NCBI GenBank assembly: GCA_943359595.1
Contig: CALRIA010000001.1
Coordinates: forward strand, 11,654-75,653
Length of the DNA stretch: 64,000 nt
Source of the DNA: Candidatus Magasanikiibacteriota bacterium
GTDB taxonomy: Bacteria; Patescibacteriota; Patescibacteriia; Magasanikbacterales; GWA2-37-8
Direction of reading: 5' to 3'
The notes below the pieces were generated by a model. The model saw nothing but the letters and a program-made list of their open reading frames with translations. It made no database searches and was not told the DNA's origin. Positions within the stretch are counted from its first letter, which is position 1, and each line of letters begins with the position of its first letter. Made by a program: the position numbers and the translations under genes. Below, in pieces: positions 14,940 through 64,000 of the stretch.

Positions 14940-14943
14940 GTAT

Positions 14944-16251: not shown

Positions 16252-16351
16252 ATTTCTTTTTCCGGGAATGACCGAGTCAATAAAGTGACGTTGTTATCCC
16301 CGGAGAGAGAAAACAAAAAATACAGTTTTGCCCCAGGTCGAGGGTTCGTAA

Positions 16352-16376
16352 TGAACTTGCAAAACTTTGGTACGTT
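16352..16376 (+). promoter_or_regulatory. Candidate ECF-type promoter (GAAC-N16-CGT) upstream of the giant surface protein gene
   Basis: tGAACtt at 16352-16358 and CGTtt at 16373-16377 with a 16-nt spacer. The perfect hairpin gtttcgac-atta-gtcgaaac (16374-16393) overlaps the -10. Confidence 0.25.
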
Positions 16377-16464
16377 TCGACATTAGTCGAAACAAAATCT
16401 CATTGCGTTTGACCGTTGTATTTATATGACGCGCGCAAAACAATGAGGTATATTAATTATATTT

Positions 16465-23251: not shown

Positions 23252-23300
23252 ATAATTCATTGTATATAGGATTATTTTGGTAAGTTGTAAAATTTTTTTT

Positions 23301-33641: not shown

Positions 33642-33645
33642 TAAT

Positions 33646-37268: not shown

Positions 37269-37272
37269 TATT

Positions 37273-39054: not shown

Positions 39055-39067
39055 TACTTTTATAGTT

Positions 39068-39970: not shown

Positions 39971-39999
39971 GGTATTAATTTTTTAGCTGTGTAGTATAT

Positions 40000-42777
40000 A
40001 TGTCATTAAATGAGTTAAAACTATTTAGCAACGATGCTATCGCATTTTTAAAGAAAAATATATTAGGAATTTTTTTGTCCTCATTTGTTATTTTTTCCGT
40101 TATTTGGTTAGGAAATATAATATCAGTTATTACTAGTCGTCAAATTTTGGATCCGTTGTCAGTAAAGGTAGAAGGGTTGGATGCACAAAATTTATCTTCT
40201 ATTAGAGTTTTGGCAACCTTGTCGCGTGCTGGCAATACTATGAATTTAACGAGGGTGTTGGAAGGAAATAAAAATGAATGGGATAACCCTAGTCAAACAT
40301 TTGTTAAAAAAATACTAGTTGGTTTTAATAATGGAAGTTTAAGTCAACTTTCGCAAATTACCGTTACTCTTGGACAGAGAGATTTTGTATATACAAAAAA
40401 ACAATTTTTGGATAATTGGAATAAAATAAATAAAAAAGATGATAGTTGGTATATGAGCGGTATAAATGACAGTTCTGGATATTTTGTATATGAAGCACCT
40501 GATAATATAAAAGTGAAACCATGGAATTTACGCGCACCAATCATTTCTAGTTTGTTATCTAGTATAAATTTCAGAGGCAGTGAATACTTAGTCTACGCTC
40601 CATTGGTCTCTAGTTTTAAAACTTTTTTGTTGGTGTTTGTAATTTTTATAGTTATTTTTTTCATTTTTTCATATTTTTGGCGTAAACATAATAAGGTATA
40701 TAACGATAATAATGATTTTTATAAAATTGAATTTATTACTTTTACTTTAGGAATTTTAGCTACTTCAGGTTCTATATTTTTGTTGTGTGTTTGTATTAAG
40801 TTTTTTTATAGGCCTGACACATCTAAAATAGTATTTGAAGCATCTAAAATTTATTTAGATAAACTTCTGCCGGCTTTTATACCTAAACCAGTGGAAAGAT
40901 TACAATTTGCACTGAGCGTATTATCAAGCCCTTTTTTATTATTTACTTTTTATAAATTATTTAGTAAATACATAAATACACTTAGTAAAGAAATAATTCC
41001 TCGTGTCTATTCAATTATAAGCACGATAGTTTTGTTGTTACTTTTTTCTGTTACTTATATAGGATTATCCGTTAGTAATTTTATGTATGTTGAGAAGAGC
41101 TATTTTTTTAATGGTGTAGGAAAATATTTATATAGTTTAGTTTTGTTTCCGTTAGGTGTTTATATTATTTTTTCATTAAAAAAAGAAAAATATTATAATT
41201 TAATTAATATTTTATTATATATATTTTCAGGAGTTTTATTAATGTCGATGTTTTTTGTTAGTATTATTGGCGTTGGTGAATCTAATTTAGATATGCTAAG
41301 TATCGTTAGCCACGCTAATCCAATTTTTTTTCCAATTTCACAAGTTGTGGCAGGCAAGACTTTGTTGGTAAATTTATCTAGTCAGTACGGTCTTTATCCA
41401 GTGTTTTTAGAGCCTATATTCAAGCTGTTTGGTTTAAACATGTTATCCCTTACATCTACAATGGGGGTATTATTAAGTTTAAGTTTTTTATTTATCTTTC
41501 TTTTTATTCATCGTTTAGTAAAAAATAAAATAATTTTGTTTCTTGGTTTTAGTACCATTATGTTTTATTTTTTGGATGGTTCTGCCAGTCCATATCCATA
41601 TTTTCAATATTGGCCAATTAGGACTTTGTTCCCATCTATACTTTTATTTCTTTCTTCTTTATATTTTAAAAGTAAAAATAAATTTCTTTATTATCTATTA
41701 TTTTTTATAAGTGCTTTAGCCATTTTATGGAATTTTGATTCTGGAATTATAGTGTTTTCTTCCTGGATAATAGCTTTGTTTTATATGGAAATGTTTAAGT
41801 CTGACATAAAAATTATTATTAGAAATATAATTTTCCATGTTATCCGTGGGGCATTAGCTATTTGCCTAGTTTCATCAGGGTATGTTGTTTATTCTTTTTT
41901 GAGATCTGGTCAGATGCCGAATTTATCTTTGTTTTTCTTGTATCAAAAATTATTTTACGATGGTTTTATGATGATTGCCATGCCTTTTCCTCACATTTGG
42001 ATTCTCATAATGTTGATTTTTCTCTCTGGGTTGCTATGGTCAATTAGAAATTTGATTATTAAAGATGATAATTATAAAAATATTTCTATTTTTCTCTTAT
42101 CTATTTTAGGTATTGGTCTTTTTAGCTATTATGAAGGTAGGTCTCATGATGCTACCTTGTATACTCCACTATATTTGGTTTTAATGCTTTTGCCAATAAT
42201 GGCGGACAATATTTTTGATATTCTTGTAAAGAATTCTAAATTATACGGGCATACTTTATTATTTTTATTTATTATTTTTATTCTTTTTGCGTCTCCTTTA
42301 AGTATTATTCACAACAGTCATAGATACTTCAGTTCAGTTAAAGCTGGTTTTAATTCTTTTTCTAATCATTCAGAAACAACGTTGTCAAATAATGTCAATT
42401 TTATAAAAAGAAATACTAAGGAATGGGAAGGTGTAATAATGTTGACAGGACCATTTGACGGTGCATATTTTGGAGAAACTCACACGCGTTCGATATTGGA
42501 CATACCATCATTTACGGAAGTATTTTATAAACGAGAGGCGGATTATATTATTAATTTTTTAAGGTGTAATAAAACGGTCAAAGTGTTTGTGTATCCTTTT
42601 AGTAAATTTTATGATCAATTTGGGAATGATCTTGTTGATATAAGGATTAATCAATTAATAAAAAGTAATTATTCAGTGGTGACAGAAAGCGGTGATGATA
42701 TGGTTGTGATGATGAATAATTATAATAATTCTGGGGGTTGTTTTTATACCAATATTAGTAAATTAATTATTAAATAA
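40000..42777 (+). CDS. Large polytopic membrane protein (925 aa), candidate GT-C-type glycosyltransferase or polymerase
   Basis: N-terminal TM + ~170-aa loop, then >14 TM helices and a ~150-aa C-terminal soluble domain. No recognisable catalytic motif. Embedded in the sugar cluster. Confidence 0.6.
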   Translation: MSLNELKLFSNDAIAFLKKNILGIFLSSFVIFSVIWLGNIISVITSRQILDPLSVKVEGLDAQNLSSIRVLATLSRAGNTMNLTRVLEGNKNEWDNPSQTFVKKILVGFNNGSLSQLSQITVTLGQRDFVYTKKQFLDNWNKINKKDDSWYMSGINDSSGYFVYEAPDNIKVKPWNLRAPIISSLLSSINFRGSEYLVYAPLVSSFKTFLLVFVIFIVIFFIFSYFWRKHNKVYNDNNDFYKIEFITFTLGILATSGSIFLLCVCIKFFYRPDTSKIVFEASKIYLDKLLPAFIPKPVERLQFALSVLSSPFLLFTFYKLFSKYINTLSKEIIPRVYSIISTIVLLLLFSVTYIGLSVSNFMYVEKSYFFNGVGKYLYSLVLFPLGVYIIFSLKKEKYYNLINILLYIFSGVLLMSMFFVSIIGVGESNLDMLSIVSHANPIFFPISQVVAGKTLLVNLSSQYGLYPVFLEPIFKLFGLNMLSLTSTMGVLLSLSFLFIFLFIHRLVKNKIILFLGFSTIMFYFLDGSASPYPYFQYWPIRTLFPSILLFLSSLYFKSKNKFLYYLLFFISALAILWNFDSGIIVFSSWIIALFYMEMFKSDIKIIIRNIIFHVIRGALAICLVSSGYVVYSFLRSGQMPNLSLFFLYQKLFYDGFMMIAMPFPHIWILIMLIFLSGLLWSIRNLIIKDDNYKNISIFLLSILGIGLFSYYEGRSHDATLYTPLYLVLMLLPIMADNIFDILVKNSKLYGHTLLFLFIIFILFASPLSIIHNSHRYFSSVKAGFNSFSNHSETTLSNNVNFIKRNTKEWEGVIMLTGPFDGAYFGETHTRSILDIPSFTEVFYKREADYIINFLRCNKTVKVFVYPFSKFYDQFGNDLVDIRINQLIKSNYSVVTESGDDMVVMMNNYNNSGGCFYTNISKLIIK

Positions 42778-42795
42778 TTCATTAATTAAATCTAT

Positions 42796-44106
42796 ATGAT
42801 AGATGAAAATCTTAGAGCCGAAATAATAAAATACTATAATTTAAAATTTCCTCAGAAAAAATTTGAGCCTGGTATTTCCAGCGTGCTTGTCACTGGGAAG
42901 GTATTTGATGAAAATGAAATGTTAAAAATGGTGGAAGCAGTATTAGATGGTTGGTGGACAGAGGGCCATTTTAGTGATGAATTCGAAAGAAAATTAGCTC
43001 ATTGGTTAGGTATTAATTTTGTGGCTTTGACCAATTCAGGTTCGTCGGCAAATCTATTGGCGGTTACTGCTTTAACCTCAAAGAAGTTGGGTGATAAAAG
43101 ATTAAAAGCGGGAGATGAGGTAATAACTGTGGCTGCTGGTTTTCCTAGCACAGTTAATCCGATTATTCAGAATAATTTAATCCCAGTTTTTGTAGATGTA
43201 GAATTAGGTACATATAATGCTAGTGTAGATGAGATTAAAAAAGCGATTAGTCCTAAGACTCGTGCAATTATGATCGCGCATACTTTGGGTAATCCTTTTG
43301 ATTTGGAACAGATTAAAAAATTATGTATTGATCATAATTTGTGGCTAATAGAAGATAACTGTGATGCTTTAGGTTCTTTATATAATGGAAAAAAGACTGG
43401 GACATTTGGTCATATCGCTACTTGTAGTTTTTACCCAGCCCATCATATCACTATGGGTGAAGGAGGCGCTGTATTTACTAACGACGCTACACTAAATTCT
43501 ATTGTAAGGTCGGTACGAGATTGGGGAAGAGATTGTTATTGTAAGACAGGAGCGGATAATACTTGTGGCATGCGTTTTGGTTGGCAATTAGGTGATTTGC
43601 CTTATGGCTATGATCATAAATATATTTATTCAGAAATGGGATATAATTTAAAAATAACTGAAATGCAGGCTGCTTTGGCTGTGGCACAATTTGATAAATT
43701 GGATGGATTTGTTGAAAAACGTCGCGCTAATTTTAACAAACTTTTTGAAGGATTAAAAAAATATGAAGAATATTTTATATTGCCAATGTGGCAAACTCAA
43801 GCTGAACCAAGTTGGTTTGGTTTCCTTTTAACTGTGAGAGAAGGTGCTCCTTTTGAGCGTAATGATATTATCCAATATTTGTTGAGTCAGAATATCCATA
43901 CCCGCTATTTATTCGCTGGCAATTTAACGAAACAACCATATTTTGTCGATAATGATATTAATTATAAGATATCAGGAGAACTTAAAAATACAGATTTGAT
44001 AATGGATAATACTTTTTGGATAGGAGTATTTCCAGGTCTCAATGATGAAATGGTTGAATATACAATAAGTTGTTTCGATAAATTTTTGGAAGTATATAAA
44101 AAATAG
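42796..44106 (+). CDS. rfbH: CDP-6-deoxy-D-xylo-4-hexulose-3-dehydrase (E1; DegT/DnrJ/EryC1 fold, PMP-dependent)
   Basis: 436 aa, DegT-family fold. The position normally holding the PLP-binding Lys carries His instead (SFYPAHHITMGEGG), which is the diagnostic feature of E1/DdhC. Same cluster as rfbF/rfbG. Confidence 0.8.
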   Translation: MIDENLRAEIIKYYNLKFPQKKFEPGISSVLVTGKVFDENEMLKMVEAVLDGWWTEGHFSDEFERKLAHWLGINFVALTNSGSSANLLAVTALTSKKLGDKRLKAGDEVITVAAGFPSTVNPIIQNNLIPVFVDVELGTYNASVDEIKKAISPKTRAIMIAHTLGNPFDLEQIKKLCIDHNLWLIEDNCDALGSLYNGKKTGTFGHIATCSFYPAHHITMGEGGAVFTNDATLNSIVRSVRDWGRDCYCKTGADNTCGMRFGWQLGDLPYGYDHKYIYSEMGYNLKITEMQAALAVAQFDKLDGFVEKRRANFNKLFEGLKKYEEYFILPMWQTQAEPSWFGFLLTVREGAPFERNDIIQYLLSQNIHTRYLFAGNLTKQPYFVDNDINYKISGELKNTDLIMDNTFWIGVFPGLNDEMVEYTISCFDKFLEVYKK

Positions 44107-51794: not shown

Positions 51795-51887
51795 ACACAA
51801 TATTATCTTGACAAACGATACCGCTTTAGATACCATATCATGGTTATACACTCTTACATAATTTGTAATTAAAATTATAAAATAATT

Positions 51888-52859
51888 ATGAAAACAGCGA
51901 TTATTAGTGGGGTAACTGGACAAGATGGTTCATACTTGGCCGAACTGTTACTTTCTAAAGGATATGAAGTGCATGGAATAATGCGCAGACTTTCTTCTTT
52001 TGCATCGGGTAGAATTGATCATTTGGTTAATTCAAATCCTAATTTTCATACATATTATGGTGATTTATGTGATGGAACTTCGATAACCGGCATTATTTCA
52101 GACATTCAACCGGATGAATTTTACAATCTTGGAGCGATGTCTCATGTAAAGGTATCATTTGAAATTCCTCAATATACACTCGAAGCAAATGCAGTTGGGG
52201 TTCTTATAGTTCTTGAAGCTATTAGAAAGTTTTCTCCGCATACAAAGTTTTATCAGGCATCTAGTTCAGAAATGTTTGGAGTACCAGGAGTTCCTGCTCC
52301 ATACAATGAAAATACTCCTATGATTCCGCAGAGTCCATATGGAGTGGCCAAACTCGCTGCGTATCATCTCACAAGGCAGTATCGTGAAGGCTATGGTCTG
52401 TTTGCTACTACAGGAATATTGTTTAATCATGAATCACCACGTCGTGGTGGTACTTTCGTGACTAAAAAAATTTCTCAGGCTGTGGCGCGAATTAAAAATG
52501 GCATGCAAGATTCTTTGGTGTTGGGTAATTTGGATGCTAAGCGCGATTGGGGTTGGTCACCAGAGTTTGTGGAAGCAATTTATCTTATAATGCAACAAGA
52601 GAAGCCTGGGGTGTTTGTTGTCGCAACTGGAGAAACTCACACTATAAGAGAATTTGTCGAAGAAGCATTTTCTTATGTGGGTCTTGATTCGAAAGATTAT
52701 GTCAGGATAGATGATAAATACAAAAGACCAAACGAAGTTCCGTTGCTTATTGGTGACGCCTCATCATCAAAAAAAATAGGATGGGAACCAAAAATGAAAT
52801 TTCATGAGATAGTTCATGCGATGATAGACTATGATATGGAGCATTTAAATGATAAATGA
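51888..52859 (+). CDS. gmd: GDP-mannose 4,6-dehydratase, second copy
   Basis: [56 protein letters not shown] and [18 protein letters not shown] are canonical Gmd motifs; paralog of 23301..24329. Confidence 0.9.
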   Translation: MKTAIISGVTGQDGSYLAELLLSKGYEVHGIMRRLSSFASGRIDHLVNSNPNFHTYYGDLCDGTSITGIISDIQPDEFYNLGAMSHVKVSFEIPQYTLEANAVGVLIVLEAIRKFSPHTKFYQASSSEMFGVPGVPAPYNENTPMIPQSPYGVAKLAAYHLTRQYREGYGLFATTGILFNHESPRRGGTFVTKKISQAVARIKNGMQDSLVLGNLDAKRDWGWSPEFVEAIYLIMQQEKPGVFVVATGETHTIREFVEEAFSYVGLDSKDYVRIDDKYKRPNEVPLLIGDASSSKKIGWEPKMKFHEIVHAMIDYDMEHLNDK

Positions 52860-53250
52860 AATGATAACTGAAATTAAATCAGAAAACAAAATTTTTGCTC
52901 TCGTTTTTGATCTTTCTTTTACAAAAGAAGGCACATTTCCAGTGACTGACCCTTCGTGGCCTATTCAAATACTTTTAATGAACCGAAAGCAGGGTCATGT
53001 TGTTGTAAAACACATGCATAAAAAAATCGAGAAAATTACAAAACAGCCACAAGAAGCAATTGTTGTTATAAAAGGCGAGATAGAAGCCAGCATTTTTGAT
53101 AGAAAGGGAAAAATTATTGCAAAAAAAAATATTTTGTCTGGTCAGTGTCTTCTTATAGTAGATGGAGCACACGAGGTGAAAATAATAAAAGATGCTTTGA
53201 TTTTTGCATTCAAGGATGGGCCATATGTAGATGATAAAATATTTTTATGA
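52849..53250 (+). CDS. Small cupin-like protein (FdtA/WxcM-like, degenerate)
   Basis: QGHVVVKHMHKKIEK...IVVIKGEIEASIFDRKGKII...LLIVDGAHEV follows the R/KG-x-H-x-H-K cupin pattern of sugar 3,4-ketoisomerases. Confidence 0.4.
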   Translation: MINEMITEIKSENKIFALVFDLSFTKEGTFPVTDPSWPIQILLMNRKQGHVVVKHMHKKIEKITKQPQEAIVVIKGEIEASIFDRKGKIIAKKNILSGQCLLIVDGAHEVKIIKDALIFAFKDGPYVDDKIFL

Positions 53251-54452
53251 AAGTTGTACAATGCCATTTATGCGCCTCAAAAAATCTCACAACGGTCCTT
53301 GACTTAGGATTTCATCCGTTGGCAGATTTTTTTATGAAAGAGAACCAACTCCAAGAGCCGGAAAGAAGATATCCTCTCGCTGTACTTCTTTGTCAAAATT
53401 GCGGACATGGGATGAATAGCTTTATTGTACCCGCAGAAGTTCGTTATCAAGAAAATGACTATAGTTATGATTCTGGTAATTCTAAAATTTCAGTACAACA
53501 TTTTACAGAAATGGCAGAAGAAGTGGTGAAGCGGGCAAATGTTAAAAAAGGTGATCTTGTAGTAGATATAGGTAGTAATATCGGGACACTTCTCAATGCG
53601 TTTAAAAATCTTGGATCAGAAATTCAAGGAGTTGATCCAGCACACAATATTGCTAAACTTGCCGAAAAAAATGGTATTCCAACTATAAACGATTTTTTTA
53701 ATGCCTCTTCTTGTGAAAAAATATTAAAAAAAGGGAAAGCAAAAGTTGTTACTATTACCAATGCTTTTAATCATATTTCTCCGCTCGATGAGTTCATGGA
53801 GTGTATTGTCTCTATTTTAGACAAAAACGGTAGTTTTATAATTGAACTTCCATATTTTCTAGAAATCATACGAAAGAAGCATTTTGATGTGATATATCTG
53901 GAACATGTATCTTATATTGCCATAAAACCGCTTGTCTCTTATTTCAAAAAATTTGGTCTTTCGATTACGCATGTTGAAGAAAACAATTACATGAGCGGAT
54001 CCATAAGAATTTTTGTAGGATATGGTCAAGAAAGTGAATTGGTAGAAAAACAAATTTCTCTGGAAGAAAAATCCGGTCTTTATAATTTAGCTATTTGGAA
54101 TACATTTAGAGAGAATGTAAAAAAATGCAAAATTAATTTATTAAAGGAATTAGTAAACGTACGAGTTGATGGAGGAAAAATAGTTGCTATCGGTGCGGCA
54201 GCCAAGGGTAACACTCTTCTAAATTATTGTGGAATTGACACTACTATTATTGATTTTGCAACGGATGCCTCACCTCTCAAAATCGGCAAATATACCCCAG
54301 GCTCGCATTTACCAATTCTTTCTGACGATGCTATAGATAGAAGTGTTACCCACGCATTAATACTCGCCTGGAATATTGCGGACTTTTTAAAGGCAAAAAT
54401 TTCGCCAAAATTTCCTCATCTTAAATTTATCACCCTACATATTATAGAATAA
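53247..54452 (+). CDS. NDP-hexose C-methyltransferase (TylCIII-type: Zn-ribbon + SAM MT + C-methyltransferase C-terminal domain)
   Basis: N-terminal CHLCASKN...LLCQNCGH zinc-binding Cys4, SAM-binding DIGSNIGTL, and a C-terminal domain architecture typical of sugar C3/C5 methyltransferases. Confidence 0.75.
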   Translation: MKVVQCHLCASKNLTTVLDLGFHPLADFFMKENQLQEPERRYPLAVLLCQNCGHGMNSFIVPAEVRYQENDYSYDSGNSKISVQHFTEMAEEVVKRANVKKGDLVVDIGSNIGTLLNAFKNLGSEIQGVDPAHNIAKLAEKNGIPTINDFFNASSCEKILKKGKAKVVTITNAFNHISPLDEFMECIVSILDKNGSFIIELPYFLEIIRKKHFDVIYLEHVSYIAIKPLVSYFKKFGLSITHVEENNYMSGSIRIFVGYGQESELVEKQISLEEKSGLYNLAIWNTFRENVKKCKINLLKELVNVRVDGGKIVAIGAAAKGNTLLNYCGIDTTIIDFATDASPLKIGKYTPGSHLPILSDDAIDRSVTHALILAWNIADFLKAKISPKFPHLKFITLHIIE

Positions 54453-54479
54453 TAATTAATAAGGATAAAAATTTATTTT

Positions 54480-54929
54480 ATGAAAAGACAAAAAAGGAAA
54501 GTAGATTTTAAGGATAGGCGAGGTACTATTATGGACATCTTCGTAAAAGAGCCCTATGAGCATTGCGTTATTATCTACTCCAACAAGGGGGCGGTTCGTG
54601 GTAGTCATTTTCATAAACGTTCGGAGCAGTCAGATTTTATGCTTTTTGGTAAAATGATGGCTTATAGTAGAAAACAGGGAAGTAAAAAAATAGAAAAGTT
54701 TGTCGTTTCTCAAAATGATTTTACCACTTGGGATAAAGGGGAAGCACATGAATTTATCGCCCTTGAAAAATGTGCCTTTTTAAGCTTTGTAAATGGCCCG
54801 CGCGGAGGTGATCAATACGAAAGCGATACATATCGCCTTAAAATTCCTCTTCACGAACAATTGAAAAAAAAGATAACCGATTGGACTTTGTTGGAAGCCG
54901 GAAAATTTAGCCAAGTAGTTTTAAAATAA
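54480..54929 (+). CDS. NDP-4-keto-6-deoxyhexose 3,4-ketoisomerase-like cupin (FdtA/WxcM family)
   Basis: RRGTIMDIF...RGSHFHKRSEQSDFMLFGKMMAY...GEAHEF is the FdtA RG-x-H-x-HK signature. Confidence 0.7.
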   Translation: MKRQKRKVDFKDRRGTIMDIFVKEPYEHCVIIYSNKGAVRGSHFHKRSEQSDFMLFGKMMAYSRKQGSKKIEKFVVSQNDFTTWDKGEAHEFIALEKCAFLSFVNGPRGGDQYESDTYRLKIPLHEQLKKKITDWTLLEAGKFSQVVLK

Positions 54930-54931
54930 TT

Positions 54932-55615
54932 ATGCCCTCAATAGCTGTAATTGGCTCAAATGGATATGTTGGGATCGCATTCTACCAAGAGCTACTCAGT
55001 TCTTCAAAGTATTCTGTTGTCGGGGTCACAAGAGAAAATTATTCTGCTATGAAGGAGCGGGATTTTGATATAATCATCAATTGTGCAATGCCGTCTGCTC
55101 GTTTTTGGGCAAAGAATCATCCGGGAGAAGACTTCGTTGAAACAGTAAAAAAGACAGCAGATTTATTATATGGATGGAAATTTAAAAAATTCGTACAAAT
55201 AAGTAGTGTCTCAGCTCGCTGCCAACTGGATACGATTTACGGAAGACACAAGGCTGCAGCAGAGTCACTTTGTAATTTTAGTAATAATTTAATTGTTCGT
55301 CTTGGAGCACTTTACGGTGAAAATATGAAGAAGGGTGTGCTCGTTGATATCTTAGAAGGTAAAAAAGTTTTTGTGGATAAAATGAGTCGTTATTCTTTTA
55401 TTTCAGTTTCGTTTTGTGCTTCTTGGGTAATATCAAATCTAGATCGTCAGGGTGTTGTTGAATTAGGCGGAAAGAATGCAATTACTTTAGAATGTGTTGC
55501 TAAACACATTGAAGCAGATGTGGAATTCGAGGGAGAAATAAATCATCAAGATATTGAAAATACAGATGAAAATCTTCCAGAAGCTGCATGCGTTATAGAT
55601 TTTATTAATAAATAA
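54932..55615 (+). CDS. Short NAD(P)-binding SDR-like protein
   Basis: IAVIGSNGYVGIAFYQEL Rossmann motif; 227 aa. Confidence 0.45.
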   Translation: MPSIAVIGSNGYVGIAFYQELLSSSKYSVVGVTRENYSAMKERDFDIIINCAMPSARFWAKNHPGEDFVETVKKTADLLYGWKFKKFVQISSVSARCQLDTIYGRHKAAAESLCNFSNNLIVRLGALYGENMKKGVLVDILEGKKVFVDKMSRYSFISVSFCASWVISNLDRQGVVELGGKNAITLECVAKHIEADVEFEGEINHQDIENTDENLPEAACVIDFINK

Positions 55616-55698
55616 AATTGGTTTATCTTTTAGTGATAGTTTTGAAAAAATAATAAAAATATACTTTAACCCGATTTATAACGAATATTAGTAGTTAT

Positions 55699-56592
55699 AT
55701 GGGAAAAAATAAAACAATTTTATTAACCGGTAGCACAGGATATCTAGGTAGTAATATTTTAAAAGTATTGCTTAGTAAAGGGTATGAAGTAAAAATATTA
55801 AAGAGATCCTTTAGTAATACTTTTAGAATTAATCAATATTTGGGGCACATAGTTGCTTATGACGTTGATAAAATTGAGTTTAGAGATATCTTTATTAATA
55901 ATAAAATAGATATTATTTTGCATTGCGCAACCGATTATGGTCGTAAAAATTCTAATTCAATTCAAATTATTGAAGCTAATTTGCTACTTCCGCTGAGGTT
56001 ATTAGATTTAGGTAGGGAATATGGCGTAAAATGTTTTATTAATACAGATACTATTTTAGATAAAAGAATTAGTAATTACTCTTTATCAAAAAAACAATTT
56101 AACGATTGGCTGGTTAGCTATAAAAATGATCTAATTTGTGTTAATATTGCTTTAGAGCATTTCTATGGTCCTGGTGACGATAAGACAAAGTTCGTTTCAT
56201 ATATATTGCGTAATTTAATTCTAAAGTCGGATAAGATCGATCTTACTATGGGAGAACAGAGAAGAGATTTTATTTATATTGACGATGTAGTGGATGCTTT
56301 TATGTTAATCTTAGAAAATGTGGATAAATATAGTAATAAGTTTTATAATTTTGAAATAGGCAGCAAAGAAACACGATCAATTAAAGAACTCGTCGAATTA
56401 ATGAAAAACATGCTCAACAATACTAAAACTATTTTGAATTTTGGGGTGTTACCCTATAGAGATAACGAAGTGATGGAGTGTGTCGTGGACACATCAGAAA
56501 TAACAAAGCTAGGTTGGTCTAGTAAATATTCTCTTGAAGAAGGTCTTAAAAAAACAATTGATTTTGAATTGGTAAATACTAACAATCTTTAG
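55699..56592 (+). CDS. NAD-dependent sugar epimerase/reductase (SDR)
   Basis: [32 protein letters not shown] (Y-x3-K). Confidence 0.65.
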
Positions 56593-56593
56593 T

Positions 56594-57613
56594 ATGAAAT
56601 ATCTGATAACTGGAGGGTGTGGTTTCTTGGGTTCCAACTTGGCTTGTGAAATAATTAAAGCCGGTGATGATTTGGTAATTTTTGATGATCTTTCTCGTCT
56701 TGGTTCGAAAGAAAATTTATTATGGTTAGAAAGTTTAGGAACATTTACGTTTGTTAAAGCTGATATAAGAAATTACAATGATGTGGAAAAGATGATAATT
56801 TCAGTAAAACCAGATACAATTTTTCATTTGGCTGGCCAGGTAGCAATGACAACATCATTACAAAATCCGAAATTAGATTTTGAAATAAATGCTTTAGGGA
56901 CTTTTAATTTACTGGACGCTGTTAGAAAATATTCTCCAGATTCGACTATTATTTATTCTTCAACCAATAAAGTCTACGGTGATTTAGAATGGTTAGGTTA
57001 TGAAGAAAAAGAAAAAAGATACGAAATTAAAGATTTTCCGGTTGGTTTGCCTGAATCAATTCCGCTTAATTTTACTTCTCCTTATGGATGTTCTAAAGGA
57101 GCGGCTGATCAATATGTATTAGATTTTTCACGTGTTTTTGGTTTAAAAACTATCGTATTTAGACATTCTTCAATGTATGGCGGAAGACAATTTTCAACTG
57201 CTGATCAAGGTTGGATAGGTTGGTTTTGTGAGCAGGCTTTAAATACTCTGAAAAACAAACAATTACCACTTTTTACAATCTCAGGTAATGGTAAACAAGT
57301 CAGAGATGTTCTCTATGCTGATGATATGGTGAATTTATATCTGTCTGCTGCAAAAAAGGCGGATGCTTTAAAAGGAGAAGTTTTTAATATTGGCGGAGGA
57401 GTAGCCAATAGCCTTTCTTTATTAGAATTGTTTGATATCTTAGAAAGTGAATTAAGTGTAAAATTAAAATTTATTAATTTACCACCCAGATTCAGTGACC
57501 AAAAAGTTTTCATTGCAGATATTAGAAAAGCGAAAAAACTAATTGGCTGGAGTCCTAAAATTGATGCACATGCTGGCATAAAAAAAATGATAGAATGGAT
57601 TACTAAAAAATAG
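56594..57613 (+). CDS. CDP-paratose 2-epimerase-like (tyvelose epimerase family, RfbE-like)
   Basis: [72 protein letters not shown] and [12 protein letters not shown] match RfbE motif-for-motif; 339 aa. Confidence 0.8.
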
Positions 57614-58317
57614 TGTATATGAAAAATAAAGAATTGAGCATAATAATCCCAGCTTATTTGGAAGAAGAAAACTTAAAAATTATTCTACCACGTCTTAAAG
57701 ACGTGTTAAAAACAATAAGTGATAATTGTGAAATTTTAGTTGTTGATACTATTGAACCTAAGGATAATACAAAGAAAGTATGTAACGATAACGAAGCAAT
57801 TTATGTTAATAGAACTGGAGGTAATGATTATGGAGATGCGATCAGAACTGGGATTAAAAGTGTTAATGGTGAGTATACTATTTTTATGGATGCGGATGGT
57901 TCACATGATCCCGAATTTGTTAAAGTTTTATATGATAATAAAGAAAACCAAGATGTTGTCGTTGCTTCAAGATATATAAAAGGTGGTAATACAGAAAATA
58001 GTAAAATCTTGATTTTTATGAGTTTGATAGTTAATGTTATATATTCTTTAGTGTTGGGGATTAAATGTAATGATATTTCCAATAGTTTCAAATTATATAA
58101 AACAGCAGACTTAAAAGATTTGAAGTTAAATTGCAATAATTTTGATGTGGTTGAAGAAATAATATTTAAATTAAAAAAGAAAAAAAAGATTTTAAAAATA
58201 AAGGAAATTCCTTTTCTTTTTAAAAAAAGGATGTTTGGTAATACAAAAAGGAATTTATTTTTATTTATGTTGTCGTATATTGTTACTATTATTAAATTGC
58301 GATTTATCAAAGAATGA
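57613..58317 (+). CDS. GT2 glycosyltransferase (DPM1/polyprenyl-phosphate type)
   Basis: LSIIIPAYLEEENL...ILVVDT...FMDADGSHDP (DxD). Confidence 0.75.
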   Translation: MYMKNKELSIIIPAYLEEENLKIILPRLKDVLKTISDNCEILVVDTIEPKDNTKKVCNDNEAIYVNRTGGNDYGDAIRTGIKSVNGEYTIFMDADGSHDPEFVKVLYDNKENQDVVVASRYIKGGNTENSKILIFMSLIVNVIYSLVLGIKCNDISNSFKLYKTADLKDLKLNCNNFDVVEEIIFKLKKKKKILKIKEIPFLFKKRMFGNTKRNLFLFMLSYIVTIIKLRFIKE

Positions 58318-58341
58318 TAAATATTTATTAATATTATTTTT

Positions 58342-59610
58342 ATGAAAATATTGCTGAATAATAAAATTATTGAAAATTTTAAAAAATTGATTAAGCCGGT
58401 TTGTTTATTTTATGCCGTTGTTGCTTCTTTTCTAGTAGCGAATTTTCCAACAGTAAAATTCGCTTATGCTTTAAATATTAGCAGGGACAATGCTGTGTTA
58501 ATGCGCGGATTTATCTTTTTTATCGCTATAATTATTTTATTTTATTTTACTTTCAAAAATTTTTATAAATTAAAAGAATATTTGCTATGGGATGTATTTT
58601 TTCGTTCTGTAGCCGTCTTTTTATTTTTAGCAATCCTAGTTTCTACCCTGCGAGCTACTTATATGGGAGAAGTGTATGCAAACATTTCTTTATCACCTTT
58701 TGACCAAGATGTTGGTTTTTTTTATAGAAGAATATTGGAACCGGCAGTAGCATTTTTTTTACAATTAAAAGGTCAATTTTTGTATAGTTGCTTGCATTTT
58801 TTGATTACTTTTTCATCTATTTACATGATTATTTTGTGGTTAGAGAAAAAAGTATTGGTAAATTTTAAAATTTGGCAGTTGGTGAGTATAATGACGGCTG
58901 GAATGATAATACATCAATTTGAGGCGCCTGGTTATCCGGATCAGATAATTTTATTGCTAGCTTTATTGTCGTTCTTTGTTCCACTTAATAAATATGGAAG
59001 AATTAGTCTGTTGGCATTAATGTTTTTATCTCATGAGTCTGCAGCATTATTTCTTGGTTTTATTTTTAGCTGGTTTTATTTTCCTAAGGAAGAACGTTGG
59101 TATTACTTTTTATTACCGGTTAGCTATTATTTTTTATGGTTAGTCAATTATGATTTTAATTTTACCAATTTATTTTTGGGTCACTTATCATTAACTAATG
59201 AAAATGCTATAACTTTATTTTTTAAAAATATTAATTTAGCAGTACTGTCGGTATTTTTTGCCTATAAATTTTTGTGGATTTTGGTATTTATTGGTTGTTA
59301 TTTTTATTTTAAAGAAAAAAATTATAAACTCTTTTATCAAATCATTGTGATGGTTTTTGCTCCATTGGCACTTGTTATAGTTCCAGACACTTCTCGCGTT
59401 GTGGCTTGGGGTAATATTGGTGTTTTTTTAGCAATCGCTTGTTCTTCCAAACATTTAAGCGCTAGGGCATTTAATTTAATTTTAGTGTTAAATCTATTGT
59501 TACCTAGTGTTGCTGTTGGCACAGCTAGTGGTGGAGCTGTTTCTTATGCTGGTTTGTATGGTTTTGTAATTTATTTGTTTAAGTTATTGGTCAAGAATTA
59601 TTTAATGTAG
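58342..59610 (+). CDS. Polytopic membrane protein (422 aa), unknown function
   Basis: ~12 TM helices, aromatic-rich, no soluble domain. Confidence 0.6.
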   Translation: MKILLNNKIIENFKKLIKPVCLFYAVVASFLVANFPTVKFAYALNISRDNAVLMRGFIFFIAIIILFYFTFKNFYKLKEYLLWDVFFRSVAVFLFLAILVSTLRATYMGEVYANISLSPFDQDVGFFYRRILEPAVAFFLQLKGQFLYSCLHFLITFSSIYMIILWLEKKVLVNFKIWQLVSIMTAGMIIHQFEAPGYPDQIILLLALLSFFVPLNKYGRISLLALMFLSHESAALFLGFIFSWFYFPKEERWYYFLLPVSYYFLWLVNYDFNFTNLFLGHLSLTNENAITLFFKNINLAVLSVFFAYKFLWILVFIGCYFYFKEKNYKLFYQIIVMVFAPLALVIVPDTSRVVAWGNIGVFLAIACSSKHLSARAFNLILVLNLLLPSVAVGTASGGAVSYAGLYGFVIYLFKLLVKNYLM

Positions 59611-59624
59611 GTATAATTAATTTT

Positions 59625-60476
59625 ATGATAATAACAAAAATAAAATGCGGACTAGGGAATCAAATGTTTCAATATGCACTTGGCAAACGCTTGTCTTTGG
59701 ATTGGCACGATGAATTAAAGGTTGATCTAGCTTGGTTTAAAAATATTAAAGCTGGTGACATACCAAGAGATCTAGAAATTAATAGTTTTAACGTTGTTTT
59801 AAACGAAGCCAGTGAAACGGAGATTTATCGTTCAACGCCGTCCATTTTTTTTAGGGCGGTTGATAGAATTCTTGGACGTTTAAACAGAAATCATTTTTAT
59901 CGCTTTTACCCACAATTGTTAAGAAAGAAAAAAAATGTATATTTAGACGGGTATTATCAGAATTATAGATATTTTGAATCAATTAGAAATGTGTTATTAT
60001 CTGAATTTATATTAAAATTTGGATATAATCAAATAGTTGATGAAATAAAATCAAAAATTGAAATGGCTGGTGAATCGGTGGCTATTCATATTCGTCGCGG
60101 CGATTTTGCTACCACACGCAAAGGATATAACGGTCTTTGCGATTTGGCTTATTATCAAAAAGCACTGGATGTAATAAATAATAAATATTCAGAAGTTAAG
60201 TTGTTCGTTTTTTCTGATGATATTGAATGGGCTAAATTAAATTTAAAATTTTCTAGTCCGATGGTGTTTGTTTCTCGGCCTATTTTGAAACCAGCCGAAG
60301 AGTTATTTTTAATGAGTTTGTGTAAGCATCAAATTATTGCCAATAGTACGTTTAGCTGGTGGGCGGCGTGGCTAAATAAAAATTCTCAAAAAATTATTGT
60401 GTCTCCTAGCGTTTGGTTGGTGGCTCAAGATATTAACATTGATTATTTGTTGCCACCAGATTGGGTAAGATTGTAA
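59625..60476 (+). CDS. Alpha-1,2-fucosyltransferase (GT11)
   Basis: N-terminal IKCGLGNQMFQYALGKRLS is the GT11 hallmark. Later HIRRGDF and a C-terminal SxFSWW-type motif (STFSWWAAWL). Confidence 0.85.
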   Translation: MIITKIKCGLGNQMFQYALGKRLSLDWHDELKVDLAWFKNIKAGDIPRDLEINSFNVVLNEASETEIYRSTPSIFFRAVDRILGRLNRNHFYRFYPQLLRKKKNVYLDGYYQNYRYFESIRNVLLSEFILKFGYNQIVDEIKSKIEMAGESVAIHIRRGDFATTRKGYNGLCDLAYYQKALDVINNKYSEVKLFVFSDDIEWAKLNLKFSSPMVFVSRPILKPAEELFLMSLCKHQIIANSTFSWWAAWLNKNSQKIIVSPSVWLVAQDINIDYLLPPDWVRL

Positions 60477-60508
60477 ATTGAATATAATTTATTGGTTAAT
60501 AAAAAATT

Positions 60509-61285
60509 ATGCCAAAAATTAGTGTTGTAATCATAACTTATAATCGAGCTCCATATATTTGTGCTGCAATTGATAGTGTTGTTTGCCAAACTAATTCAGA
60601 TTGGGAGTTGTTAATTATTGATGATGCTTCAACCGATAATACAAAGTTGTTGATTGATAGTTATATTAATCGTGATTCTAGAATTAAATATATTAAAAAT
60701 CTTAATAATATTGGAATTAGTGCGTCACGTAATAAAGCTCTGCACGCAACTAGTGGAAAGTATGTGGCTATTCTGGACAGTGATGATATTTGGGCGGATG
60801 AAGAAAAACTACAAAAACAATGTAACTTTCTTGAAAATAATGTGGAATATGTAGTAGTTGGCGGGGCTGTGATAGTCTTAAATGAAAGAGGGGCTGTGAT
60901 ATTTCATTATAAAAATCCAATCACTGATATGGCAATCAGAAAAATAATATTATTACGGAATCCTTTTATAAATTCATCGGTCATGTTTGTTAGAGAAGTG
61001 GCTATAAAATGTGGTGGGTATGAAGATTATGTGGTAGGTGAAGATTATGATTTATTTTTAAAAATGGGACAACTTGGTAAAATGTACAATTTAAACGATT
61101 TTCTGGTTAGATATAGAAAGCATGATGCAGGAATTACCTGGTCTAAACGGGTTCGGGCGGCGCAAGATCATTTGGACATAATTAATAAATTTAAACAGGC
61201 ATATCCCAATTATTTTTTTGCTTTGATTAAAGGGTATGTGAGATTATTTTTGGCTAAATTTTTGTTTTGTAGTGATCATTGTTAA
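60509..61285 (+). CDS. Glycosyltransferase family 2
   Basis: ISVVIITYNRAPYI...LLIIDDASTDNT...ILDSDDIW. Confidence 0.8.
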   Translation: MPKISVVIITYNRAPYICAAIDSVVCQTNSDWELLIIDDASTDNTKLLIDSYINRDSRIKYIKNLNNIGISASRNKALHATSGKYVAILDSDDIWADEEKLQKQCNFLENNVEYVVVGGAVIVLNERGAVIFHYKNPITDMAIRKIILLRNPFINSSVMFVREVAIKCGGYEDYVVGEDYDLFLKMGQLGKMYNLNDFLVRYRKHDAGITWSKRVRAAQDHLDIINKFKQAYPNYFFALIKGYVRLFLAKFLFCSDHC

Positions 61286-61286
61286 T

Positions 61287-62390
61287 ATGAAAATATTATA
61301 TTTAATAACTAAATCAGAGATTGGTGGCGCCCAAACGCATGTAGGGCAGTTGGTTAAATTTTTTGTTCAAAATAACCACGAAGTCGTCGTGATGAGTCTG
61401 CCGGGTGGTTGGCTAGAAAATGAGGTAAAAAATATAGGGGCAAAGTTTGTTCCTAATATTTATTTTTCTAATAATTTAAATCCTGTTCGTTTTTTTTATG
61501 CAATTAGAATTATCAAAGAATTGGTCGAGGAGTTTAAGCCTGATTTAGTGGCTTGCCACAGCACTGCCGCAGGTTTTATTGGAAGAATCACAATTAGAAA
61601 TAGCGTGCCGACAATTTATACTGCTCACGGTTGGTCCTTTGAACCAGGTACACCTTTTTGGCGAAGGTTTCCGGGGATTTTGGCAGAAAAGTATGCCGCT
61701 AATTTTTGTAAAAAAATTATTTGTGTTTCAAAGAACACTCGTCGTATTGGCATAAAATTTAGAATTGCCAACCAAGATAAAATGGTGGTAATTTATAATG
61801 GTATTGAAAAATCAGATCTACAGAAGAATGTTGAAAACAGTAAACTTAAAATAATTTTTGTAGGAAGATTTTCAAAGCAAAAAAATCCAGAATTATTAAT
61901 AAGGGCGGCATCACGCTTACCAAATAATTTATTAAAACAAATTGAAATATTATTAATTGGTAATGGTCAAAAGACATATTTGATTAATAATTTAATCAAA
62001 CTAAATAAAAATTTATTTGTTAAAATTTTCCCAAGCGTTAACCGTGATGGTATAATTCAATTGTTACAAGATTCAGACATATTTGTACTTTCTACCAATT
62101 GGGAGGGGCTTCCTTATTCAATCTTGGAGGCCATGAGCGTTGGTTTGCCGGTGATAGCTACGGACGTTGGTGGAATAAATGAATTAGTAGACAGTAGTTG
62201 TGGTTTTTTGATAGAACGTGGTGATGTGGAGGGGCTGCAAAAGGCATTAGTCAATCTAATTTTAGATAAGGAGTTGAGGAAAAAAATGGGTGAAAATGCA
62301 AAAAAAATTATTGAAGATAAATTTTCTATGGATAAAATGCTGTTAGAAACAGAAAAAGTTTATAATGCAGTAATGAAAAATAAAATATGA
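61287..62390 (+). CDS. Glycosyltransferase family 4
   Basis: KILYLITKSEIGGAQTHV at the N-terminus. C-terminal STNWEGLPYSILEAMSVGLPVIATDVGG (E-x7-E). The ORF is open from 61272. Confidence 0.8.
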   Translation: MKILYLITKSEIGGAQTHVGQLVKFFVQNNHEVVVMSLPGGWLENEVKNIGAKFVPNIYFSNNLNPVRFFYAIRIIKELVEEFKPDLVACHSTAAGFIGRITIRNSVPTIYTAHGWSFEPGTPFWRRFPGILAEKYAANFCKKIICVSKNTRRIGIKFRIANQDKMVVIYNGIEKSDLQKNVENSKLKIIFVGRFSKQKNPELLIRAASRLPNNLLKQIEILLIGNGQKTYLINNLIKLNKNLFVKIFPSVNRDGIIQLLQDSDIFVLSTNWEGLPYSILEAMSVGLPVIATDVGGINELVDSSCGFLIERGDVEGLQKALVNLILDKELRKKMGENAKKIIEDKFSMDKMLLETEKVYNAVMKNKI

Positions 62391-63790
62391 AATTACTTTA
62401 CCTGGGTGCCGGTTTTGTCGGAACATGTTCTGCAGCAGTAATGGCTGATAGTGGTCATGATATTTTGATTTATGATATTGATCAAATAAAAATTAAAATG
62501 CTTGGCTCTGGCGATCGTGATTTGATCCAGAATTGTCTGTTTGAAGATGGGTTAGGTGATCTGTTGGTTCAAAATAAAGATCAAATAAAATTTTCTTCTG
62601 ATTATAATGACGTAGTAAAAAATCTGGATACATTAGATGCCGTCTTTATGTGTCTACCAACTCCAGAAAAGAAAGGTTCAAAAGGAGAATCTGACTTGTC
62701 TTATTATTATTTGGCCGCCGAAGAATTAGCTAAAAATTTAGCCAAAAGAAATGGTGAGGCACAAAATAAATATATAGTGATAATTAATAAAAGTACCGTG
62801 CCGATTGAAATGATTGATGAGACGGAAAAAATAATGAAAAAACATGGCGTCAAAAATTTTGGTTTAGCTTCTAACCCAGAATTTTTGGTAGAAGGCAAGG
62901 CAATTTATGGTTCTTTGAAACCAGATCGCATTGTTATTGGGGCTTGGACTGAGGAAGATTTTAAAATTATTCGTAATATCTACCAGAGATTTTATTCTTC
63001 ACCAACAGTAAAATATATTGAAGTCAATCCTAAAGAAGCGGCCGCTGGAAAACTATTGGCTAATTATTATTTATTTAGTAAGTTAGCGATTTGTTACGAT
63101 GTGATTGGCCGCACTTGTGAGACGTTTGATAATTTGCAATTTGAAAATTTAAGAAAAATTATTAGTACTGATCCTCGTCTAGGTAGTTGGGGGTTATTTG
63201 ATAGTTTTTTTGCTGGCGGTAGTTGCTTTATTAAAGATACTGCTTCGTTGGCCTATCAATTGGAGGAAAAGGGTGTGGACGTATCCTATATTAAGGAAAG
63301 TTTGCGTATAAATAATTTCCAATGTGATAATTTCTATAATCGCGCTGGTAGCGAAGCCCAATTTAGTTTTAAAAATAAAGCAGTAGCGATTTTGGGCGTG
63401 GCTTTTAAAAGAGATACTAATGATGTGCGTAATTCTGGAGCGATAGAAATAGTTAATAAGTTGTTAGATGATCAAGTAAAAGAAATAAAAATTTATGATC
63501 CAGCTGCTATGTGGATGTTTAAAAAAGTTTTTGATGTCGAGAAAGATTCGCGATACAAGGTCATTAATTATTATAATTCTGAAAAAGATTCTTTGTCTGG
63601 AACAAGTGCTTGTATGATTTTAACTGATTGGCCAAAATTTAGAGAAATTGGCAGCGTTATTAAACAAAAATGCCCCGCTCCATATTTAATTATGGATGGT
63701 CGTCGAATGCTGTCGGCTCAATTTGATGAATTACAGAATTTAGGTTATGATATCATCGCAGTCGGTAGTCCATTTTTAAAAGGAAAATAA
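62387..63790 (+). CDS. Nucleotide-sugar 6-dehydrogenase (UDP-glucose/GDP-mannose dehydrogenase family)
   Basis: [21 protein letters not shown]-terminal NAD motif. Catalytic-Cys region GGSCFIKDT. 467 aa. Confidence 0.85.
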
Positions 63791-63795
63791 AATAT

Positions 63796-64000
63796 ATGTC
63801 AAAATTAGTAGTTACTGGCGGAGCCGGATTTATCGGCTCACATTTAGTAGATAGATTAATCGAACTTGGTCATCAGGTTGTGGTGATTGATAATTTATTG
63901 CTAGGTAAAAAAAGTTTTGTAAATAAAAAAGCAAAATTTATTAAGGCAGATATTAGAGATTTTAATAAAATTAAAAAATGTTTTTCTGGTGCTGAAGCAA
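63796..64000 (+). CDS. NAD-dependent nucleotide-sugar epimerase/dehydratase (GalE-like), 3' truncated by the window edge
   Basis: [35 protein letters not shown]. Confidence 0.7.

Follow-up and report, generated by a model that had tools for sequence, protein, structure and literature searches.

Do the seven contiguous nucleotide-sugar genes at positions 51888-57613 of this DNA build one sugar, or do they belong to more than one pathway? They lie in a 64,000-nucleotide stretch of contig CALRIA010000001.1 (Candidatus Magasanikiibacteriota bacterium), which we call the window. The first-pass annotation had read them as one unit made up of a second GDP-mannose 4,6-dehydratase (GMD) gene, gmd2, a sugar C-methyltransferase gene with a small cupin gene on either side (cupin A and cupin B), and three genes for short-chain dehydrogenases/reductases (SDRs). 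All seven open reading frames (ORFs) were present on the + strand where that annotation had put them, within a single long same-strand surface-glycan locus that runs from about 20 kb to the window end. Comparison with related genomes indicates that the run nevertheless merges two units, a five-gene module at 51888-55615 and a separate CDP-tyvelose-type cassette at 55699-59610. We consider it probable that the first is a self-contained, translationally coupled module for a GDP-activated C-methyl-branched 6-deoxyhexose, and that the second is a different, mobile cassette.

The boundary between the two was found by synteny with contig OBEQ011383186.1 of GCA_900206355.1 (L003, below the sister contig), which is collinear with the window. 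In blastn, window 51869-55619 corresponded to 9023-12754 of the sister contig and window 59613-63991 to 12756-17153, which meant that the 3,993 bp in between (55620-59612) were absent there and are an insertion relative to it. On the sister contig, the third-last gene of the run (a 227-aa SDR, hereafter mini-SDR) is followed after 17 bp by the orthologue of the GT11 glycosyltransferase that stands beyond the insertion in the window (83% identical), and this direct adjacency makes the GT11 protein the candidate transferase of the module. So the seven genes are not one unit, and although three SDR genes do follow the cupins, the module keeps company with the 227-aa SDR only. Protein identity between window 51888-55615 and sister contig 9040-12750 was uneven (Gmd2 99%, cupin A 74%, methyltransferase 82%, cupin B 93%, mini-SDR 80%), and this mosaic suggests recombination within the module.

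Conservation of the module and its enzymes

Loci were fetched around cupin A homologues, mostly from Patescibacteria metagenome-assembled genomes (MAGs) together with two gammaproteobacterial MAGs, and were searched by tblastn with the window proteins. The gmd2 gene stood immediately upstream of cupin A in 20/20 related loci (L001-L020). The string gmd2-cupin A-methyltransferase was kept in 12 other genomes (L001-L015, L020), often with overlapping stop and start codons. The earlier proposal of a second gmd heading a sub-pathway for a C-methyl branched sugar, possibly GDP-linked, is supported, and this gmd appears dedicated to it. All five genes were found in 10 other genomes, again mostly Patescibacteria MAGs, with the mini-SDR gene sometimes upstream or on the opposite strand. 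Low GC and a faint match to the LIC_10190 family (28.6 bits, cutoff 100) had pointed to Leptospira as the source, but this was rejected, as the nearest named relatives are Patescibacteria MAGs and a literature search on Leptospira gave no support. In the window, the intergenic distances inside the module are 1, -4, 27, and 2 bp (the -4 is a 4-bp overlap between the cupin A stop and the methyltransferase start), and the flanking gaps are 93 bp ahead of gmd2 and 83 bp beyond the mini-SDR.

Judged from its sequence, Gmd2 is a bona fide GDP-mannose 4,6-dehydratase. It scored 397.7 bits against Pfam GDP_Man_Dehyd (PF16363; cutoff 27) and matched solved GMDs with E values of 1e-94 to 4.5e-106, while the TIGR01472 score of 415.0 bits was exactly at the cutoff of 415 and is borderline. 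The catalytic Ser/Thr-Glu, the YxxxK motif, and a 14-residue signature, as defined for GMDs in PMC3539893, were all present in the translation, where the segment recorded for them is 37 residues. Gmd2 is 52% identical to the product of the canonical gmd1 (23277-24329), which is followed by fcl; this identity and the family scores confirm the call of a second GMD gene. A recent duplication of gmd1 as the origin of gmd2 was considered and rejected, since the identity is just 52%. Even gammaproteobacterial MAGs (L017, L019) have the short gmd2 type at 79-80% identity, again ahead of cupin A.

The methyltransferase was the clearest family member of the module. The domain search that had been proposed for 53247-54452 returned Methyltransf_13 (PF08421, 59.8 bits), Methyltransf_23 (PF13489, 47.9 bits), and the C-terminal Methyltransf_14 (PF08484, 122.4 bits), all above their cutoffs. 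The best solved relative was MtmC (4rv9; 248 bits, E 1.3e-72, 35% identity over 383 columns), followed by the KijD1-type structure 5t64 (178 bits) and TcaB9 (165 bits). All 10 solved-structure matches were sugar 3-C-methyltransferases and O-methyltransferase models such as UbiG reached just 29 bits, so the assignment to TylCIII-type sugar C-methyltransferases, and not to O- or N-methyltransferases, held. An N-terminal Cys quartet (C6, C9, C49, C52) corresponds to the Zn-Cys4 domain, and the Y217-x-E219-H220 motif aligns with the YHEH of MtmC. Because MtmC is the nearest relative, methylation would most probably occur at C-3, and GDP specificity is suggested solely by the conserved operon with gmd2.

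Other genes related to methylation were seen in the same material. A divergent Methyltransf_13/14 C-methyltransferase adjoins RfbH in a CDP pathway in L023 (GCA_018657365.1, 4959-6239), and another, 28% identical to the window enzyme, adjoins a GT2 (family 2 glycosyltransferase) gene and a GtrA-like gene in L001 (17110-18372); C-methyl sugars of several kinds seem to be common in these uncultured bacteria. The window also carries metK, for methionine adenosyltransferase (10304-11455, 604.6 bits), about 9 kb before the glycan locus starts, and that locus encodes at least six methyltransferase domains.

Cupin A was assigned a true start at 52861 instead of the 52849 of the ORF list, which gave 129 aa as in all homologues. 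There were 102 homologues of 58-84% identity that carry a precomputed PF19480 (DUF6016) annotation. The wider family comprised 1,693 clusters at E<=1e-3, and in the 149 cluster representatives used for motif counts a His-His-Glu-His metal motif was nearly universal (H51 in 148/149, H53 in 147/149, E65 in 144/149, and H104 in 137/149). The AlphaFold2 (AF2) model was all-beta, with a predicted local distance difference test score (pLDDT) of 84. These features place cupin A among the DUF6016/WbuC-like cupins and predict a canonical metal site.

Cupin B gave a more confident model (pLDDT 92), and Foldseek matched it to RmlC homologues, the CapF cupin domain, StrM, FdtA/QdtA, and GDP-heptose epimerases with E values of 3e-8 to 6e-7 and template modelling (TM) scores of 0.55-0.75. 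The model superposed about equally on FdtA/QdtA, RmlC, and CapF (TM 0.6-0.7 for FdtA/QdtA when normalised to the query). The family profile ranked PDB entries in the order CapF (E 3e-5), RmlC-like (E 5e-5), QdtA (E 0.002), and FdtA (E 0.015), and among the 42 family members WbuC (TIGR04366) was matched by 23, the WbjC/CapF-type model (NF047837) by 16, and RmlC by 15; the window protein itself reached 26.9 bits with PF14667, under the cutoff of 28.7. In sequence, cupin B thus appears nearer to CapF/RmlC-like proteins than to QdtA/FdtA. Its predicted metal ligands, H43, H45, Q50, and H90, were invariant in the 42 sequences.

The first-pass annotation had called both cupins FdtA/WxcM-type. That they are cupins and stand on both sides of the methyltransferase was correct, and they are not unrelated small proteins: a cupin fold was predicted for each, and hhalign (E 6e-5) relates the two as distant paralogues. 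The type was not confirmed, since neither matched Pfam FdtA (PF05523) or RmlC even at E<=10, and A is DUF6016/WbuC-like while B is nearer to CapF/RmlC. The His pair of 3,4-ketoisomerases was indeed invariant in both (H51/H53 in A, H43/H45 in B), but this HxH is motif 1 of metal cupins in general and does not discriminate.

The mini-SDR had a single Pfam match, Epimerase, at 30.4 bits. The Rossmann motif GxxGxxG and the residues S91, Y103, and K107 were invariant in 11 orthologues, which also gave weak but consistent matches to GDP-fucose synthase (Fcl; 9/11), RmlD (7/11), and the WbjC/CapF-type model (3/11). Two loci (L008, L010) lack cupin B and the mini-SDR and have fcl directly upstream of gmd2-cupin A-methyltransferase. 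Since fcl encodes a 3,5-epimerase/4-reductase, its replacement of these two genes fits cupin B and the mini-SDR as an epimerase/reductase pair. In three unrelated loci (L025, L026, L027) the gene next after a C-methyltransferase encodes a cupin B relative with 42-58% identity. One of these loci also has a short SDR beside the cupin, and the methyltransferase in L025 is a shorter, Methyltransf_14-only one. Together with L008 and L010, this pairing supports a division of the module into Gmd2 plus cupin A, and methyltransferase plus cupin B, with a reductase.

Table 1 Genes and sites in and around the five-gene module (window coordinates)
Feature	Position	Strand	Remark
Intergenic gap, 93 bp	51795..51887	+	sigma-70-like TTGACA (51808-51813), 17-nt spacer, TACCAT (51831-51836)
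Gmd2, GDP-mannose 4,6-dehydratase, short type, 323 aa	51888..52859	+	first module step
Cupin A, DUF6016/WbuC-like metallocupin, 129 aa	52861..53250	+	proposed action on Gmd2 product
SAM-dependent NDP-hexose C-methyltransferase, TylC3/MtmC/TcaB9 family, 401 aa	53247..54452	+	
Cupin B, CapF/RmlC/FdtA-type nucleotide-sugar cupin, 149 aa	54480..54929	+	proposed post-methyltransferase epimerase
mini-SDR, 227 aa	54932..55615	+	proposed NAD(P)H-dependent 4-ketoreductase, last module step
CDP-paratose-synthase-like SDR (SDR297), 297 aa	55699..56592	+	outside module; first gene of inserted cassette
CDP-tyvelose 2-epimerase homologue, 339 aa	56594..57613	+	outside module
GT2, polyprenyl-phosphate sugar synthase type, 234 aa	57613..58317	+	outside module; third gene of trio
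Polytopic membrane protein, 422 aa	58342..59610	+	last gene of 4-kb insertion; specific to window
GT11 (fucosyltransferase-family) glycosyltransferase	59625..60476	+	Glyco_transf_11 118.5 bits; candidate transferase for module GDP-sugar
SAM, S-adenosylmethionine; NDP, nucleoside diphosphate

The gap ahead of gmd2 has the length reported earlier, and its proposed promoter is plausible but weak. The hexamers listed in Table 1 are present, and on the sister contig both TTGACA and the -10 position (there TAATAT) are kept upstream of gmd2 despite a different preceding gene, a carbamoyltransferase, so that one relative gives modest support; but promoter-like sites in the region were no commoner than in shuffled sequence (59 found, 54 +/- 7 expected). 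The promoter/terminator scan found no terminator-like site in the gap and no terminator between the two units. The carbamoyltransferase gene (569 aa, sister contig 7246-8955) lies between the gene for a 645-aa membrane protein and gmd2 and is absent from the window. This insertion is another sign of cassette turnover in the locus.

Proposed route and positions of methylation

In the route that we propose, Gmd2 would convert GDP-D-mannose to GDP-4-keto-6-deoxy-D-mannose, and cupin A would act on this keto-sugar via an enediolate, most likely by epimerisation at C-3 and/or C-5 and less likely by 3,4-keto-isomerisation. The TylC3/MtmC-type enzyme would then transfer the methyl group of SAM to the carbon beside the keto group, presumably C-3 of a GDP-linked substrate. 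Cupin B may epimerise the methylated keto-sugar, probably at C-5, and the mini-SDR may reduce the 4-keto group with NAD(P)H, after which a neighbouring glycosyltransferase would add the sugar to a surface glycan. Epimerisation after methylation is the order of known pathways, in which TylK, EryBVII, and EvaD act after TylC3, EryBIII, and EvaC. GT11 enzymes use GDP-L-fucose, so the GT11 neighbour fits, but does not prove, an L-configured GDP-6-deoxyhexose as the product.

Several observations weigh against this route. For none of the five enzymes is there a close relative characterised as acting on a GDP-sugar, and every solved relative of the methyltransferase uses dTDP-sugars. Cupin A reached only 32.6 bits with the WbuC model TIGR04366 (cutoff 42), and its Foldseek matches, to FdtD, FdtA, RmlC, and WbcA, were weak (E 0.01, TM 0.4-0.5). 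The single mini-SDR sequence matched no solved structure in PDB at E<=1, and its family profile gave weak matches to extended SDRs and nothing stronger. Methylation at C-3 makes a C-3 epimerase stereochemically redundant, which leaves one of the two cupins without an explained role. A mannose-1-phosphate guanylyltransferase was not identified in the 64-kb window.

The redundancy of one cupin would disappear if cupin A were a GDP-4-keto-6-deoxymannose 3,4-ketoisomerase, FdtA-like in function, for then both cupins would gain a non-redundant role. Methylation would take place beside a 3-keto group, at C-2 or C-4, the mini-SDR would be a 3-ketoreductase, and gmd2-cupin A together with a DegT-family aminotransferase would lead to GDP-3-amino-3,6-dideoxyhexoses. 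We regard this as unlikely, though less so than the other alternatives. In three loci (L017, L018, L019, at about 7040-9360; two gammaproteobacterial MAGs and one Patescibacteria MAG) gmd2-cupin A is directly followed by a DegT gene in triplets of overlapping genes, which is the classical ketoisomerase-aminotransferase arrangement. Such triplets may serve a GDP-amino-dideoxyhexose pathway in which a cupin step is required. FdtD and FdtA were also the top Foldseek matches of cupin A, weak as they were, and the HxH pair is present. FdtA and QdtA are metal-free, but the HxH of cupin A sits in a full His-His-Glu-His metal motif, and PF05523 was not matched. The cupins linked to DegT are 40-45% identical to the window protein and have Tyr-Lys in place of H104-E105, so their function may differ. 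The DegT protein itself is no poorer a match to perosamine (4-amino) synthase than to QdtB; for L017 the best match was PDB entry 7B0M, for which a literature search gave no paper. In L016 the gmd2-cupin A pair is flanked by ordinary SDRs, as in epimerase-reductase routes. To our knowledge, all characterised TylC3-family enzymes act beside a 4-keto group, and no GDP-sugar 3,4-ketoisomerase has been assigned for mycosamine-type sugars. A 3,4-ketoisomerase role for cupin A is therefore doubtful by the balance of these points.

A broader proposal, which we likewise hold only tentatively and with low confidence, is that the invariant Gmd2-DUF6016 pair is a two-enzyme unit. Its cupin would be an unrecognised metal-dependent isomerase or epimerase for GDP-4-keto-6-deoxymannose, possibly a GDP-sugar 3,4-ketoisomerase, and would feed the C-methyltransferase here or the aminotransferase in L017-L019.

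Methylation at C-5 would remove the redundancy of a C-3 epimerase in another way, and it is less probable still. NovU, which belongs to the same family as the window methyltransferase, is a 5-C-methyltransferase, and a cupin epimerase before and a reductase after the methyltransferase would follow the gene logic of noviose (NovW 3-epimerase, NovU, NovS reductase), with a 5-C-methyl (gem-dimethyl) 6-deoxyhexose as the product. The closest solved relative is the 3-C-methyltransferase MtmC at 248 bits, however, and cupin B would become the redundant cupin instead. We retain methylation at C-3 of a GDP-4-keto-sugar as the preferred reading.

The inserted cassette and the CDP branch

The inserted segment carries the genes for a 297-aa SDR (SDR297), a homologue of the CDP-tyvelose 2-epimerase TyvE, a GT2, and a 422-aa membrane protein. 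SDR297 lies 1 bp upstream of the TyvE-like gene, and RfbS-then-RfbE is the gene order of Salmonella. Homologues of SDR297 with 57-62% identity bear the JGI name 'CDP-paratose synthetase', and for this family there is no curated model or solved structure. The 339-aa protein gave 535.6 bits and 68% identity over 338 aa with 9RL0 (TaTyvE), a characterised CDP-tyvelose 2-epimerase (PMC13098431). It gave 460.8 bits with the Salmonella structure 1ORR, and the next-best family, UDP-glucose 4-epimerase, followed at 144 bits. The close match of the last SDR to CDP-paratose 2-epimerase (RfbE-like) reported in the first pass was thus reproduced, but the protein is not part of the module. The GT2 matched Glycos_transf_2 (79.9 bits), and its best NCBIfam models, AglJ, ArnC, and dolichyl-phosphate hexose transferase, were all under cutoff. 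The 422-aa protein had no Pfam or NCBIfam match and no tblastn match in any fetched locus.

The first three of these genes travel together. The trio SDR297-TyvE-GT2 was found about 28 kb upstream of the module on the sister contig, with 76% nucleotide identity, and also in L023, where a CDP-glucose/RfbH gene string precedes it by a few genes; wherever SDR297 occurred (L021-L024), a TyvE-like gene and a GT2 gene followed. SDR297 and the TyvE-like SDR were never present in the 20 related loci (L001-L020, tblastn), in which gmd2 and cupin A were always adjacent. The window has its own RfbH upstream (42796-44106, 698.5 bits, cutoff 423), alongside cytidylyltransferase-like and CDP-glucose-dehydratase-like genes. 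By these comparisons the RfbE-like gene appears to be part of an ordinary rfbS-rfbE-type pair serving the CDP branch, with a position that reflects cassette shuffling, and the mobile cassette would complete the CDP-3,6-dideoxyhexose branch begun at the upstream cytidylyltransferase, CDP-glucose dehydratase, and RfbH genes.

The first-pass model puts all seven genes into a single pathway that has two ketoisomerases of the FdtA type and three reductases/epimerases, and in which an RfbE-like enzyme acts in cross-talk on a GDP-sugar. It is hence highly improbable. In its favour, the seven genes adjoin one another on one strand, and CDP-tyvelose 2-epimerases can accept other nucleotide sugars in vitro, GDP-glucose included (PMC12188384; PMC7851689). 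Synteny with the sister contig contradicts the model, as 55620-59612 is missing there between mini-SDR and GT11. The separate trio, its absence from L001-L020, the 83-bp gap between module and SDR297, and the RfbH and early CDP genes upstream in the window speak against it as well, and cross-talk between GDP and CDP branches need not be assumed from the position of the RfbE-like gene. Least credible is the alternative that the methyltransferase takes as its substrate a CDP- or dTDP-keto-sugar made by another pathway encoded in the locus, with Gmd2 a mere neighbour: its solved relatives use dTDP-sugars, the locus has CDP and RmlD-like genes, and a different C-methyltransferase adjoins RfbH in L023, but gmd2-cupin A-methyltransferase is kept in 12 other genomes, whose flanks of 8-10 kb showed no CDP-pathway genes, and the L023 enzyme is of another lineage, having no tblastn match with the window enzyme at >=38% identity.

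The CDP branch itself (window 31870-44106) begins with glucose-1-phosphate cytidylyltransferase-like and CDP-glucose 4,6-dehydratase-like genes and a split transketolase (33610-35369). These are followed by acetaldehyde dehydrogenase and a DmpG-type aldolase (35360-37268), an acetolactate-synthase-like thiamine diphosphate enzyme (37273-39054), an SDR, a 925-aa protein without family (40000-42777), and RfbH. Together these genes resemble a pathway to a carbon-branched (yersiniose-like) 3,6-dideoxyhexose; an E3 reductase was not found in the window. L021 and L023 also have the string cytidylyltransferase-dehydratase-split transketolase.

Both here and in L021-L024, the gene after the TyvE homologue encodes a polyprenyl-phosphate-type GT2, and after it come large polytopic or unannotated proteins, of 422 aa in the window and 904 aa in L023. 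A similar protein of 913 aa lies elsewhere in L021, and the window has the 925-aa protein. This combination of GT2 and large proteins suggests that the dideoxyhexose is delivered via a lipid-linked monosaccharide and added outside the cytoplasm.

At window 29578-30892, the gene for an RmlC-like cupin of 149 aa (dTDP_sugar_isom 43 bits, Polysacc_synt_C 28 bits) overlaps that for an RmlD-like reductase (196 bits, under the cutoff of 224). Among the annotated window genes there was neither a dTDP-glucose synthase nor a dTDP-glucose dehydratase.

Known systems and meaning

The mycarose and epivancosamine pathways use a 4,6-dehydratase, C-methylation, a cupin epimerase, and a 4-ketoreductase, and the proposed module follows the same order. 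The window methyltransferase shares with TylC3, EryBIII, MtmC, TcaB9, and KijD1 the Zn-ribbon Methyltransf_13, the SAM domain, Methyltransf_14, the four Cys, and the YxEH motif. Unlike the enzymes of those actinomycete dTDP pathways, it is operon-coupled to a GDP-mannose dehydratase and not to dTDP-glucose enzymes; the module lies in a surface-glycan locus of uncultured bacteria, probably Patescibacteria, without genes for 2-deoxygenation or amination, and its cupins and reductase are of other families.

The nearest parallel on a GDP scaffold is the virenose (6-deoxy-3-C-methylgulose) of Coxiella burnetii, for which a route was proposed in silico with the GMD CBU_0689, the TylCIII-like CBU_0691, and the GMER CBU_0688 (PMC3539893). 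As late as 2026 that route was said to be incompletely characterised (PMC13252051, PMC13552124), and in the searchable literature this unvalidated proposal was the only GDP-based C-methyl route found. Both systems have a GMD, a TylC3-type C-methyltransferase, and an epimerase/reductase function in a lipopolysaccharide or glycan locus, and L008 and L010, with fcl-gmd2-cupin A-methyltransferase, are alike in this. In the Coxiella proposal, however, a single bifunctional GMER stands in the place of cupin B plus mini-SDR, and a DUF6016 cupin is not described for that route.

Cupin B beside an unusually short SDR mirrors both domains of CapF/WbjC/FnlB, in which a cupin 3-epimerase is joined to a short SDR 4-reductase. 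The likeness to the CapF cupin domain (family profile E 3e-5, Foldseek E 5e-8) extends to matches with the WbuC and WbjC NCBIfam models. In the window, though, these are separate proteins in the reverse order, the scores are all under the family cutoffs, and the presumed substrate is a GDP-sugar, whereas CapF-type enzymes act on a UDP-2-acetamido sugar.

FdtA, QdtA, and WxcM share with the window cupins a small size, about 135 aa, and the placing of an HxH pair on the same strand. Cupin B gave TM scores of 0.64-0.75 with FdtA/QdtA/HCAN_0198 when normalised to those chains, and some of its distant relatives have weak PF05523 matches although neither window cupin does. Against FdtA/QdtA, the window cupins keep the third His and the Glu/Gln of the cupin metal site, and the module has no aminotransferase.

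Outside the module, 55699-57613 has the same gene order as RfbS-RfbE of Salmonella/Yersinia and a counterpart in TaTyvE, with RfbH and early CDP genes in the same locus. It differs in the polyprenyl-phosphate-type GT2 that follows, which suggests delivery as a lipid-linked monosaccharide, and in the E3 reductase, which was not found in the window.

Already known are the logic of branched deoxysugar pathways, the family to which the methyltransferase clearly belongs, and the ordinary type of the last two SDRs. New are the predicted GDP scaffold, the pairing with two WbuC/CapF-like metal-type cupins, the minimal SDR without close solved relatives, and the mainly Patescibacteria distribution.

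C-methyl branched sugars are understood almost wholly from the dTDP pathways of antibiotic-producing actinomycetes, and the virenose of the Q-fever agent is the one prominent GDP-based case, still unproven. The compact set of five small genes might reveal the way in which a GDP scaffold is used to make a C-methyl sugar, and it brings in three essentially uncharacterised families, namely the DUF6016/WbuC cupins, the CapF-like free-standing cupin that partners C-methyltransferases, and the 227-aa SDR. For annotation, the locus teaches that contiguous same-strand sugar genes can be independent cassettes. The module is commonest in genomes of the ultra-small, uncultured Patescibacteria (the candidate phyla radiation, CPR), whose surface chemistry is almost unknown, and it has never been studied biochemically. 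If the proposal of a Gmd2-DUF6016 unit were true, the methyl branch could lie at C-2 or C-4, where no enzyme of this family is known to place one, and the surfaces of Patescibacteria would carry branched sugars of a new, GDP-derived class.

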